24,199 nt of DNA, taken from an uncultured virus (IMG/VR IMGVR_UViG_2061766007_000921) (taxonomy: Duplodnaviria; Heunggongvirae; Uroviricota; Caudoviricetes). The notes beneath the pieces are model-generated. The model ran no database searches and was not told where the DNA came from. It was given only the letters and a program-made list of their open reading frames with translations. Shown here piece after piece: positions 1,682 through 21,470 of the stretch. The stretch is taken from the IMG/VR virus record IMGVR_UViG_2061766007_000921, one strand, 5' to 3'. Each line of letters starts with the position of its first letter. Within the stretch, counting starts at the first letter, position 1. A program made the translations under genes and the position numbers.

Positions 1682-1726
1682 AAAATTAAAACCTCCTTAT
1701 TCTTGTTGTTGAATGAGGAGGTTTTT
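1682..1726 (-). terminator. Attenuator terminator upstream of the tRNA operon
   Basis: AAAACCTCCT-C-ATTC AACAACAA GAAT-A-AGGAGGTTTT followed by AATTTT, ending about 10 nt before tRNA-Arg. Confidence 0.8.
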
Positions 1727-1765
1727 GTATCTTTATATCTTGTTATCTTATACACATCTTCTCAT

Positions 1766-1849
1766 TCAACTTTGTACACAGAGTTTTAAGCGATAATAAA
1801 TCGCTGCTGATTTAATAATGTTAATGGAATATGTGTTTCTTGTTATCAT
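1766..1849 (-). CDS. Putative attenuator leader peptide MITRNTYSINIIKSAAIYYRLKLCVQS (27 aa)
   Basis: Short ORF directly after a consensus promoter; its TGA stop lies inside a strand complementary to the 5' arm of the downstream terminator. Confidence 0.72.
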   Translation of the reverse strand: MITRNTYSINIIKSAAIYYRLKLCVQS

Positions 1850-1867
1850 AATTATAAATTTTATATG

Positions 1868-1898
1868 CAAATATACAAAAAGATTTTTATCTTGCAAA
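1868..1898 (-). promoter_or_regulatory. Bacteroidota-type promoter driving leader peptide and tRNA operon
   Basis: TTTG (1898-1895), 19 nt, TATATTTG (1875-1868). Confidence 0.82.
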
Positions 1899-1934
1899 TT
1901 ATTTATTAAAATTCTGTGAGAAATTTCTCACATT

Positions 1935-2297
1935 TTACAGTTGAACATCTTCTATATCAACACTGGTTGTAATAGTCTTAATTTTTGCTGCTGCAATATT
2001 TTTCCAAACAGCTCTTCCTACTGAAGATGGACCGATGCCATCATATATATCTGTAGTCTTAAACTTTCCTCTTTCAAGCCATGCATTGAATTCTTCTTCA
2101 TTTCTTGTTGATTCTACATTACCGGTTTCATCAGCTACATAATAAATTGTTTCAACATTCTCTGATGGAACTAATTGCAATCTTTTAGGAAACAAAGAAT
2201 CTGACATTCCTTCTGTTATGAATTTCAAAACATCTTTCTTACCATAAGATTCTACAAGTCTTTGAAGCTCTTTTCTATCTTTATCTATTTGTTTCAT
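1935..2297 (-). CDS. Shared-leader family protein 4 (120 aa), putative head-packaged protein
   Basis: Begins MKQIDKDRKELQRLVESYGKKDVLKFITE; start moved to ATG 2297 by alignment with the three paralogues. Confidence 0.85.
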   Translation of the reverse strand: MKQIDKDRKELQRLVESYGKKDVLKFITEGMSDSLFPKRLQLVPSENVETIYYVADETGNVESTRNEEEFNAWLERGKFKTTDIYDGIGPSSVGRAVWKNIAAAKIKTITTSVDIEDVQL

Positions 2298-2313
2298 ATT
2301 TGTATTTTTAAGT

Positions 2314-2904
2314 TTAAATAACAATGCTTTCTATTTTCTTAATTTTATTATCTATAGCTTGTTTCTTCATTTTGAGCTTATTTAAAATATTAGACATTTT
2401 ATTGTTTTCATTAAGATAAGCTTTCAATAAGTTTCTATCTGTTGTTATATAAAGTGCTCCTGTTTTATCTTGAAGTTCTGACTTTCCCTTTATTTTATAT
2501 CTGCAAGATTCATGTTCATAACCTTCCCAATCTCTATGACCTCCTGAAATATTATTATCATAAAATTCTATTACTAATGGAACTCCTTCATATTCAAATT
2601 TAGCACTGTAAGTATAAGCAGTATAAGTAAATTCTGCCTTTTCCCAACCGGTTTCTGTTCTATTATTAACTTTAAAATTTCCAAGATATGTAATTTTATC
2701 TATAAAAAGTTCAGTATCATAATAATTGTCATTAGTAAAAGCAATATACATCTCTGTTCCGGGTGGAGTATTTTGAAGCAAAGGACAATTAATACTTGAC
2801 TTTCTTGCTTCATTTATACTGTCAACATATTTAATTACATCTTTCTTACCATAAGACTCTACAAGTCTCTTAAGAATATTTCTATCTCTAACTATTTGTT
2901 TCAT
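2314..2904 (-). CDS. Shared-leader family protein 3 (196 aa)
   Basis: Begins MKQIVRDRNILKRLVESYGKKDVIKYVDSINE; unrelated body; C-terminal coiled-coil-like tail. Confidence 0.88.
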   Translation of the reverse strand: MKQIVRDRNILKRLVESYGKKDVIKYVDSINEARKSSINCPLLQNTPPGTEMYIAFTNDNYYDTELFIDKITYLGNFKVNNRTETGWEKAEFTYTAYTYSAKFEYEGVPLVIEFYDNNISGGHRDWEGYEHESCRYKIKGKSELQDKTGALYITTDRNLLKAYLNENNKMSNILNKLKMKKQAIDNKIKKIESIVI

Positions 2905-2927
2905 TGTTTGTGCTGTTTTATATTATT

Positions 2928-3710
2928 TTATGAAAGATATATTTGAAGGACTTTTTCTCCTCCCCAATTTGTATAATCTACAACAGAGCCGTAATAACAT
3001 ACAAAATTTGGATCATTTTCATATGATTCATTAGAATCATAATGTTCATCATCATTCTTTTCTACATATACTATATTATCAAGTGACTTATAGTAGTTTC
3101 TACCGTTTCCTTTATAAAAAGCAATAAACAAGTCTGTTCTACATCTTTCACATCCTTCAATATCAACTATACCATCTAAATATCCATTTGGATCTGCATC
3201 AGAAGAGACTGAACCTTCAATTCTTTCTCTATCATATAAACCTTCATTCATATGATAATTTTGAATTGTTTTAAATTTTCTTTCTACTGTATCTTTTAAA
3301 AATTCTAAATGTTTTCTGCAAGTGTCAATAATATCATCTATATCACGTCCAAATTCATATCCGATTCTAAGATATCTTGCTTCGTTAAAAAACTTTCCTA
3401 TCCAATCACACAAAACCTTTAAGTTTTCCTTTGCTTCATAGTCAGAAGAATCATCATATATAAAATATGTACGACCGGGTTTAGAGAATCTTATTTTATC
3501 AATAGATTTAAGAACTGCATCACATCCTGTAAGTTCACACGCTCTTTGAAGATATTCATTACCTGCTTGTTCATATTCATCTGCAAGTGCATCAAATTCA
3601 GAATTAGATTTATATTCATTCAAATGTCTTACATAATTCAAAACATCTTTCTTGCCATAAGACTCTACAAGTCTTTTAAGAGAATTTCTGTCTTTATCAA
3701 TTTGTTTCAT
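2928..3710 (-). CDS. Shared-leader family protein 2 (260 aa)
   Basis: Begins MKQIDKDRNSLKRLVESYGKKDVLNYVRHLNE; internal HMNE/G may separate two cargo domains. Confidence 0.88.
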   Translation of the reverse strand: MKQIDKDRNSLKRLVESYGKKDVLNYVRHLNEYKSNSEFDALADEYEQAGNEYLQRACELTGCDAVLKSIDKIRFSKPGRTYFIYDDSSDYEAKENLKVLCDWIGKFFNEARYLRIGYEFGRDIDDIIDTCRKHLEFLKDTVERKFKTIQNYHMNEGLYDRERIEGSVSSDADPNGYLDGIVDIEGCERCRTDLFIAFYKGNGRNYYKSLDNIVYVEKNDDEHYDSNESYENDPNFVCYYGSVVDYTNWGGEKVLQIYLS

Positions 3711-21032: not shown

Positions 21033-21470
21033 TTATATTGAATATATTTCATCAGTTATTGGTACACATATAGAATCTGGAAATTTCATTTTACCTAATT
21101 GCCTCCACGCTTTTGCATATCCATTTTTACATACTGAAGTAATATAAGCAAATGCATTTTCTGAAACATCAGGATTAAAATTTTTCCAATATCTTATGCA
21201 ATCCATAACTGCACTAGATATACAGTCTTCTCTATCTGCAGGATTATTATATCTAAGTTTAACAGATAATCTTTCAGCAATTTGTTTAAACATTAACACT
21301 GCCTCAACTGTAAGTTCTCCTTGTTCTCTGCTTTTTTTAAGCTCTGCTAAAAGTTCCGAATTTTTTACATAATGTCCTGATGCAGGTTTTTTAGGTTGAT
21401 TAAGAGTTTCATCAACAAATTCAACTCCTTCAGCAGCAGCCTTTAGTTGAGCTTGTCGCTTTGTAGACAT
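21033..21470 (-). CDS. gp55: T4 gp55-like late-transcription sigma factor
   Basis: HYVKNSELL...IAERLS...EDCISSAVMDCIRYWKNFNPDVSENAFAYITSVCKN matches the gp55 pattern YVNNKELL...IAEGLS...NFD..K..NPHAYITQ.C.N. Confidence 0.85.
   Translation of the reverse strand: MSTKRQAQLKAAAEGVEFVDETLNQPKKPASGHYVKNSELLAELKKSREQGELTVEAVLMFKQIAERLSVKLRYNNPADREDCISSAVMDCIRYWKNFNPDVSENAFAYITSVCKNGYAKAWRQLGKMKFPDSICVPITDEIYSI

Follow-up and report, generated by a model that had tools for sequence, protein, structure and literature searches.

To our knowledge, the control of phage tRNA expression has barely been studied, and it is an unusual stretch of DNA in front of a phage tRNA-Arg gene that raises the question here. 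Between the promoter and the tRNA lie a short open reading frame (ORF) and a terminator, and it might be asked whether transcription of the tRNA is governed by a ribosome that translates this leader, which tRNAs such a device would sense and which it would supply. The locus resides on the minus strand of a 24,199-nucleotide sequence from an uncultured virus of the Caudoviricetes, a rumen phage (IMG/VR record IMGVR_UViG_2061766007_000921); this whole stretch is referred to as the window, and the features described below that lie within its first 1,935 positions are on the minus strand unless indicated otherwise. An initial annotation had proposed that a leader-peptide attenuator may switch on the phage tRNA operon when those same tRNAs run short.

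Layout of the leader and its surroundings

The window has a G+C content of 28% and harbors phage-type genes, including an HNH endonuclease, several DNA methyltransferases, glycosyltransferases, an exonuclease and a late sigma-like factor, the latter recognized by a family match at 21033-21470. Metagenome runs of bovine and goat gut, taken from 12 studies, contained DNA near-identical to the window. A scaffold gap of ten N is located at about 24090, within the last ORF region. Upstream of the leader lies a 129-aa gene with its stop at 1935, homologues of which are about 80% identical in other collections. Directly 3' of this gene, a weak hairpin with a short T run (GAATTTTAAT, 1915-1932) comprises seven pairs at -8.5 kcal/mol. 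The N-terminal word of the 129-aa neighbor, KDRxxLxRLVESYGKxDV, recurs in many otherwise different small proteins (P0007-P0018) and is also found inside a 369-aa ORF (1831-2940, minus strand) of L002, the contig of the one relative described below; by its behavior, the word appears to be a shuffled module.

When the sequence was re-read, the promoter, ORF, pairing segments and terminator claimed in the initial annotation were all recovered in place. The promoter, P1 (1868-1898), is of the Bacteroidota type and reads TTTG-N19-TAtaTTTG, with TTTG at -33 and TAtaTTTG at -7, a pattern that corresponds to the sigma-ABfr consensus of the Bacteroidetes cited in PMC7366714. The strict pattern occurs four times in the window, three of these being intergenic, and four or more matches were obtained in 11 of 100 shuffles. 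Judged from the -7 box, the transcript would start at about 1864-1861. From P1 to tRNA-Arg extends a leader of about 190-194 nt that contains the ORF as well as the terminator.

The leader ORF (1766-1849) consists of 27 codons followed by TGA (ATG at 1849-1847, TGA at 1768-1766) and encodes the peptide MITRNTYSINIIKSAAIYYRLKLCVQS. Within it are located segment 1 (1820-1836, codons 5-10), a candidate anti-antiterminator, and an inner hairpin, AGCGAU/AUCGCU (1789-1805), which spans codons 17-20 including CGC and is part of the minimum-energy fold. Segment 2 (1749-1770) is the 5' arm of the antiterminator and holds the leader stop codon, as had been stated: TGA at 1768-1766 falls inside 1770-1749. 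Segment 3 (1708-1729) is the alternative partner of either segment 2 or segment 4. The terminator hairpin (1688-1725) has 10 + 4 pairs and an 8-nt loop, and is followed by a U-rich tail (UUUUAAUUUUAAU, 1675-1687). The first gene after the switch is tRNA-Arg(ACG), which was identified by ARAGORN at 1599-1672 and starts 15 nt past the stem.

P1 is paralogous to P2, the promoter of the tRNA-Ile gene further downstream. Their alignment reaches from -45 to about +45, pairs the first part of the P1 leader with the tRNA-Ile leader, and is interrupted only by 15 inserted nucleotides in P1, in which the start region and the ATG are located. The 16-nt start region with its ATG (1862-1847) is repeated at 1590-1575 in the window, and this repeat is absent in L002. 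With regard to the origin of the leader, a decayed tRNA in the 145 nt after 1817 was considered and dropped, as none was detected by ARAGORN or Rfam. The idea that segment 2 goes back to the 3' terminal part of the gene upstream was likewise rejected; the match of 14/17 is at chance level among the listed repeat families. A scan of 900-2400 for Rfam riboswitch, T-box or leader families at E up to 1 returned none of these, but tRNAs and chance-level matches only.

Competition between terminator and antiterminator

Folding of the leader (1865-1675) resulted in a minimum-energy structure that combines helix 1:2, the inner hairpin and the terminator, in line with the arrangement put forward initially. 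Its energy is -36.4 kcal/mol, as compared to -20.1 +/- 3.3 kcal/mol for shuffles (z -4.96). Taken in isolation, the competing folds are nearly isoenergetic, with -17.4 kcal/mol for the 1:2 region, -16.7 kcal/mol for the 2:3 region and -17.1 kcal/mol for the terminator.

Helix 2:3 is a perfect pairing of 10 bp between 1770-1761 and 1717-1708. Its significance was assessed by determining the best duplex between the terminator 5' arm and the 135 nt upstream and by comparing it to dinucleotide shuffles of the upstream part. The energy of the 2:3 duplex, -16.8 kcal/mol, was reached in none of 2000 shuffles, which had a mean of -6.2 +/- 1.8 kcal/mol, and a perfect run of at least 10 bp with the terminator 5' arm occurred once in 2000. 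Among the natural 27-nt words of the window, a set which includes real hairpins, 2.9% match the energy of 2:3. The best upstream competitors of the five other terminator-like hairpins in the window attain only -3.3 to -8.1 kcal/mol. The competition of 2:3 with 3:4, that is of antiterminator with terminator, is real and beyond chance.

The 1:2 duplex has an energy of -13.5 kcal/mol, which is equalled by 11% of the shuffles and by 3% of the natural words, and by itself this pairing is not significant (p about 0.11). Of the three attenuator helices that had been described, 2:3 (0 of 2000 shuffles) and the terminator stand, and 1:2 is a candidate that is present in the minimum-energy fold without being significant alone (11%).

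A consensus terminator scan flagged the hairpin 1725-1688 on the plus strand only. The minus-strand hairpin was missed because the scan assigns four A-U pairs to the stem, and the remaining tail fails the T rule. A role of the hairpin as a terminator for convergent transcription was considered and dropped, the nearby plus strand being without a credible gene.

Start site, codons and geometry of the leader ORF

The ATG of the leader ORF is the first one after the promoter and lies about 13-16 nt past the putative transcript start. In a matrix derived from 28 gene starts of the window, its context scores 4.57, a value as high as which is found for 2.1% of 1033 ATGs; the leave-one-out mean of the true starts is below it, at 0.24 +/- 4.4. 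The ATG is preceded by A at -3, -6, -11, -12, -13 and -15, and according to the description in PMC7366714 these positions are enriched for A in Bacteroidetes mRNAs, in which a Shine-Dalgarno sequence is absent. A search with the extended leader ORF matched no predicted protein in a collection of 5.8 billion proteins.

The codon content of the ORF was set against the usage in the genes of the window, a comparison which had already been envisaged. TAT, ATT, AAA and CGC account for 10 of the 26 codons following the ATG, as opposed to 17.4% of the 7231 codons in the window genes (p 0.009), and the enrichment of all codons readable by the four tRNAs, for which 21.4% would be expected, has a p of 0.036. 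An equal codon share was found in one of 118 other short ORFs, and intergenic trinucleotide frequencies resemble the coding ones. With respect to codons 7-22, the initial count is correct in that 10 of these 16 codons are TAT, ATT, AAA or CGC; the enrichment over the ORF is only modest, however (p 0.009-0.036), and the sub-window was picked post hoc. The caveat that ATT, TAT and AAA are common was well founded, since with shares of 4.6%, 5.5% and 7.2%, respectively, all three are the commonest codons of the phage. CGC is rare, with 6 occurrences among 7231 codons in the phage, and is present once in the leader, where it doubles as the 3' arm of the inner hairpin AGCGAU/AUCGCU. It is the only leader codon read by tRNA-Arg(ACG).

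Codons 7-13 overlap or adjoin segment 1. The run ATT TAT TAT CGC TTA AAA (1801-1784, codons 17-22) sits in the 49-nt loop that separates segments 1 and 2. With CGC in the A site, a ribosome would be expected to occupy about 1807-1778, which would leave segment 2 free and segment 1 uncovered, and a ribosome positioned at codons 17-22 could probably exclude 1:2 only sterically. At the stop codon, a ribosome would cover the core of segment 2 in the manner of the classical model.

Conservation of the leader

Nucleotide and protein searches against GenBank phages gave only tRNA-level matches or remote homologues, scans of IMG/VR and a protein-alignment scan of JGI metagenomes yielded no relative, and the conserved 23-mer had no match in GTDB genomes. 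The lone IMG/VR match, L003, was rejected, since it shares a 20-mer by chance, belongs to a giant-virus bin and has neither leader nor tRNA. The 20-mer of segment 2, when searched in JGI metagenomes, led to one true relative, the 3021-base contig L002, while a second locus with this word, L001, was dismissed as a chance match.

The upstream genes of L002 differ from those of the window. Its layout is that of the window, with the hairpin, P1, a 27-codon ORF, the terminator, tRNA-Arg(ACG), a uORF with a small ORF, and P2 in the same order. With respect to the expectation that ORF and helices should recur in relatives, the 27-codon ORF, segment 2, the terminator arms and 2:3 are all kept in this single one. 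Over the whole leader, 178 of 192 positions are identical. The identity amounts to 61/62 in P1 and the 5' UTR (1911-1850), 47/57 in ORF codons 1-19 (1849-1793), 84/84 from codon 20 (CGC) to segment 3 (1792-1709), 5/8 in the terminator loop (1710-1703), 28/28 in the 3' arm and U run (1702-1675) and 40/74 in tRNA-Arg (1672-1599). The changes spare segment 2 and both terminator arms.

The ORF of L002 has acquired 10 substitutions within codons 2-19 and still comprises 27 codons. The resulting leader peptide, MKTRNTYSIKNIQSAVIYYRLKLCVQS, is changed at 5 of 26 residues, with two synonymous changes, no indel and no stop. The frame is left open by 52% of random sets of 10 substitutions, and third codon positions take six of the 10 changes, which is not significant.

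With respect to the helices, C1708 is replaced by U in L002, by which a G-C pair of 2:3 becomes G-U and the pairing is kept. The inner hairpin AGCGAU/AUCGCU is out of register. Segment 1 shows two one-sided changes, and three other substitutions create the sequence CAUUCAA, which pairs with the segment 2 core. The 1:2 region of L002 folds at -17.0 kcal/mol (-17.4 kcal/mol in the window) with a duplex of -14.9 kcal/mol (-13.5 kcal/mol in the window); 24% of random mutants reach this fold energy and 8.5% this duplex energy. A consensus fold of the two sequences, which has no statistical power, contains 44 pairs with no compensatory change and one one-sided change. The body of tRNA-Arg(ACG) is 54% identical between the window and L002 (961-1033), with the same anticodon loop, and it seems that the tRNA at this position has been either replaced or subject to rapid diversification.

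Additional sequences were obtained from contigs of public runs, of which parts without coverage were not taken as evidence. A goat-gut contig of 1925 bases (X8) covers 979-1606 and 1673-2259, and its tRNA-Arg slot was classified as 'same length, diverged'. Among the differences listed for this contig, beyond which the table holds another 44, at least five are in the leader, including the leader-peptide changes T3I, I11N and V25M, and none of those listed is in a helix arm. A contig from a bovine run (X3) is 99% identical to the window over 1854-2309 and has no match to it below 1854. Because this contig keeps the upstream gene (99%) yet diverges below 1854, some relatives lack the leader, which is dispensable there. 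A joint of 1594 to 1868 in X3 was not counted as a deletion variant; it is supported by 21 bases on one side, and these match the repeated start region. Contigs from two runs carry two extra bases in the tail (1675-1687), with a longer second U run. Finally, a 398-base contig from an RNA library (X17, depth 3.6) spans 1435-1830 and thereby leader codon 7, the terminator, tRNA-Arg and the small gene. This contig fits read-through, and could also stem from DNA carry-over.

The tRNA array and the scope of control

Downstream of tRNA-Arg, ARAGORN identified tRNA-Ile(GAT) at 1331-1257, tRNA-Lys(TTT) at 1151-1078 and tRNA-Tyr(GTA) at 1065-979. The array had been counted as four tRNAs; more are present, including a further tRNA at 283-192 (Rfam, 31.6 bits). 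An HNH endonuclease gene (292-924) is situated within the array. The 5' part of another tRNA (1-90) is cut by the window start, and between tRNA-Ile and tRNA-Lys resides an acceptor/T-arm minihelix (1165-1253), for which weak tmRNA-3'-end and YrlA-like matches were the only ones obtained. L002 has a different, Cys-rich ORF of 212 aa after P2, at the place of the window's tRNA-Ile. As judged from these sequences, the tRNA array is mosaic among relatives.

P2 (1368-1398) is located 35 nt before tRNA-Ile. A 21-mer of its -7 region is found exactly in 64 loci of species-representative genomes (L004-L067), 56 of which are Bacteroidota by record title, comprising rumen and gut Bacteroidales as well as Prevotellaceae. 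In 36 of the 60 loci that were scanned, a tRNA follows about 17-40 nt downstream in the same orientation. In Kaistella and Chryseobacterium, this is often tRNA-Asn. Based on the exact word in 56 Bacteroidota loci and the tRNA downstream in 36/60, P2 is an ordinary tRNA promoter of the host type, and the presence of such a promoter in a phage supports a Bacteroidota host.

Between tRNA-Arg and P2, a pattern scan found no terminator-like sites. This interval contains a 12-codon uORF (MESGAKFKRLFV, 1577-1539), which is identical in L002 at 39 of 39 bases and overlaps the TTG start of a 43-aa ORF (1546-1415), both being located behind the switch as well. The overlap could reflect translational coupling or a frameshift.

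Because P2 drives tRNA-Ile, -Lys and -Tyr, the switch can gate only tRNA-Arg and the small downstream gene. Control over the whole phage tRNA operon, as originally envisaged, can therefore not be upheld, as these three tRNAs stand behind a promoter of their own; the reservation that an internal promoter at 1368-1398 might bypass control turned out to be justified, given that P2 has the features of a host-type tRNA promoter. Similarly, the proposal that those same tRNAs are sensed is not supported in its general form: the leader has one CGC for the gated tRNA, ATT, TAT and AAA are merely the commonest codons, and the codon run lies outside segment 1. Self-sensing by a tRNA can be maintained only in the case of tRNA-Arg, with its one CGC codon.

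Possible functions of the leader

The reading that we tentatively prefer, at somewhat less than even confidence, is that the leader between P1 and tRNA-Arg is a transcription attenuator, which is most likely read by a ribosome on the 27-codon ORF. The attenuator anatomy suggested at the outset is retained in this reading, with the helix competition, the good ATG context and the stop codon in segment 2 all kept in L002. The elements, the significance of 2:3 and the retention in L002 are observed; from these, we infer that the ORF is translated, that ribosomes stall on it and that read-through is regulated. The terminator 3:4 would compete with the equally stable antiterminator 2:3, which in turn would compete with 1:2. 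A ribosome that has arrived at TGA would mask segment 2, so that the terminator forms. In contrast, a slow ribosome on codons 7-22 would leave segment 2 free and keep segment 1 off it, 2:3 would form, and RNA polymerase would continue into tRNA-Arg and the uORF/43-aa gene. In this way, the switch might couple the output of tRNA-Arg to decoding speed, with tRNA-Ile, -Lys and -Tyr remaining outside its control.

A read-out by the ribosome appears to be the most economical account of the placement of the ORF, the statistics being weak and the sequences two in number. In favor of an attenuator, the gene following the leader is tRNA-Arg(ACG) in both sequences despite an identity of 54% in the tRNA body, and with 194 nt the P1 leader is an outlier compared to the roughly 17-40 nt at the usual tRNA promoters of Bacteroidota. 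Against it, recent recombination or a function as small RNA could account for the conservation of the 3' block, and the inner hairpin also provides an explanation for the CGC codon.

The order of promoter, short ORF and strong terminator would also suit an independent cassette that produces a small RNA of about 180 nt or the 27-aa peptide, with tRNA-Arg being transcribed by leak-through or from an unrecognised promoter. This possibility, which we consider unlikely but worth serious attention, gains from the fully conserved 3' half, as seen in many small RNAs, from the match to a late-sigma family in the window (21033-21470) and from a peptide that differs at 5/26 residues next to a 43/48-aa ORF that is similarly diverged by eye; moreover, attenuator RNAs have been described to act in trans elsewhere once terminated (PMC6614838). 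However, an upstream competitor of equal strength, unique among six terminators, would be left unexplained and tRNA-Arg would be left without a recognizable promoter, and neither the 5.8-billion-protein collection nor Rfam provides a match for the ORF or the leader, respectively. Alternatively, and slightly less likely, the terminator may be conditional without being read by a ribosome; the ORF would be incidental, and a protein, a small RNA, a tRNA or the kinetics of folding would decide between 2:3 and 3:4. Such a switch would build on the statistically solid part of the data, the competition of 2:3 with 3:4 and its conservation, and the 84/84 identity from codon 20 to segment 3 is as would be expected for an RNA or protein binding site. 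It would also sit well with the weak evidence for the ORF, of which 52% of random variants stay open, 5/26 residues are changed and the codon enrichment is modest. What makes us doubt it is that a first ATG in a good context and a stop inside segment 2 would have to be a coincidence; no candidate factor is known, and riboswitch, T-box and leader families of Rfam are without match at E up to 1.

It is improbable, in our view, that the arrangement is evolutionary debris, in which a duplicate of P2 with a 15-nt ATG insert became P1, landed upstream of a terminator and regulates nothing. P1 and the first 45 nt can indeed be aligned to P2 plus the leader of tRNA-Ile when the 15-nt insert is disregarded, the 16-nt start region is repeated at 1590-1575, and the tRNA region is mosaic among relatives, with a differing upstream gene in L002. 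Yet the leader is identical at 178/192 positions in L002 as opposed to 40/74 in the adjoining tRNA, the changes in L002 avoid the terminator arms and segment 2, and the 2:3 complementarity is far beyond chance.

If the ribosome-read attenuator is assumed, it might further be speculated that the phage autoregulates a replacement tRNA-Arg(ACG), the leader being flipped to the antiterminator by pausing at CGC and the neighboring Ile, Tyr and Lys codons. A failure of Arg(ICG) decoding, for example due to a host anticodon nuclease, would then yield tRNA-Arg(ACG) on demand, and the exchanged tRNA body next to a conserved leader would represent an arms race over the tRNA in which the sensor is retained. 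We regard this extension as quite doubtful.

Comparison with known systems

Altogether, the layout looks like a classic attenuator in an unusual use, in front of a phage tRNA-Arg. The general logic of leader-peptide attenuation has been outlined in PMC1183508. With the attenuators of amino-acid operons in E. coli (trp, his, thr, ilv, pheA), the locus shares a short ORF close to the promoter, a set of three predicted helices that would exclude one another, with 1:2 as a candidate, a stop codon at which a terminating ribosome would cover segment 2, and an intrinsic terminator upstream of the gated gene. Unlike in these systems, a tRNA rather than a biosynthetic enzyme is gated, the leader contains codons for several amino acids, a single one of which belongs to the gated tRNA, the main codon run is located between segments 1 and 2 instead of in segment 1, and the setting is a phage with a Bacteroidota host and no Shine-Dalgarno sequence. 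T-box riboswitches lead to a similar outcome, in that the state of a leader with terminator and antiterminator reflects how much of a given tRNA is available. T-boxes recognize uncharged tRNA by direct binding, regulate genes for aminoacyl-tRNA synthetases and amino-acid metabolism, have a conserved T-box sequence and occur mostly in Firmicutes, whereas the phage leader had no T-box match in the Rfam scan of 900-2400. The leaders of whiB7, erm and yxjB, in which slow translation of a uORF relieves a terminator, have been described to sense a general slowing of ribosomes (PMC10274678, PMC6851288). They gate resistance or stress regulators and not tRNA genes, and no sequence relation to the phage leader was found.

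In Bacteroides thetaiotaomicron, short ORFs located within long 5' UTRs follow the same rules for promoter and start site (PMC7366714). They are unvalidated ORFs of a cellular genome, and the passages of that paper describing them place none in front of a tRNA gene. Ordinary tRNA promoters of Bacteroidota have the -33/-7 pattern of P1 and P2, and P1 is followed by 194 nt with an ORF and a terminator. Literature searches at the level of abstracts gave no description of leader-peptide control of any tRNA gene, in agreement with the earlier remark that no phage tRNA array was known to be controlled in this way. Phage tRNAs have been discussed as counter-measures to host defences that cleave tRNAs (PMC10264068, PMC11464382, PMC11555353). 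If the ribosome-read attenuator is correct, the phage leader would add a direct feedback loop, in which the decoding speed measured by the leader results in more tRNA. It would, in addition, provide a worked example of ribosome-mediated attenuation in the Bacteroidota, a group for which this mode of control is mentioned in PMC7366714 as a suspicion only.
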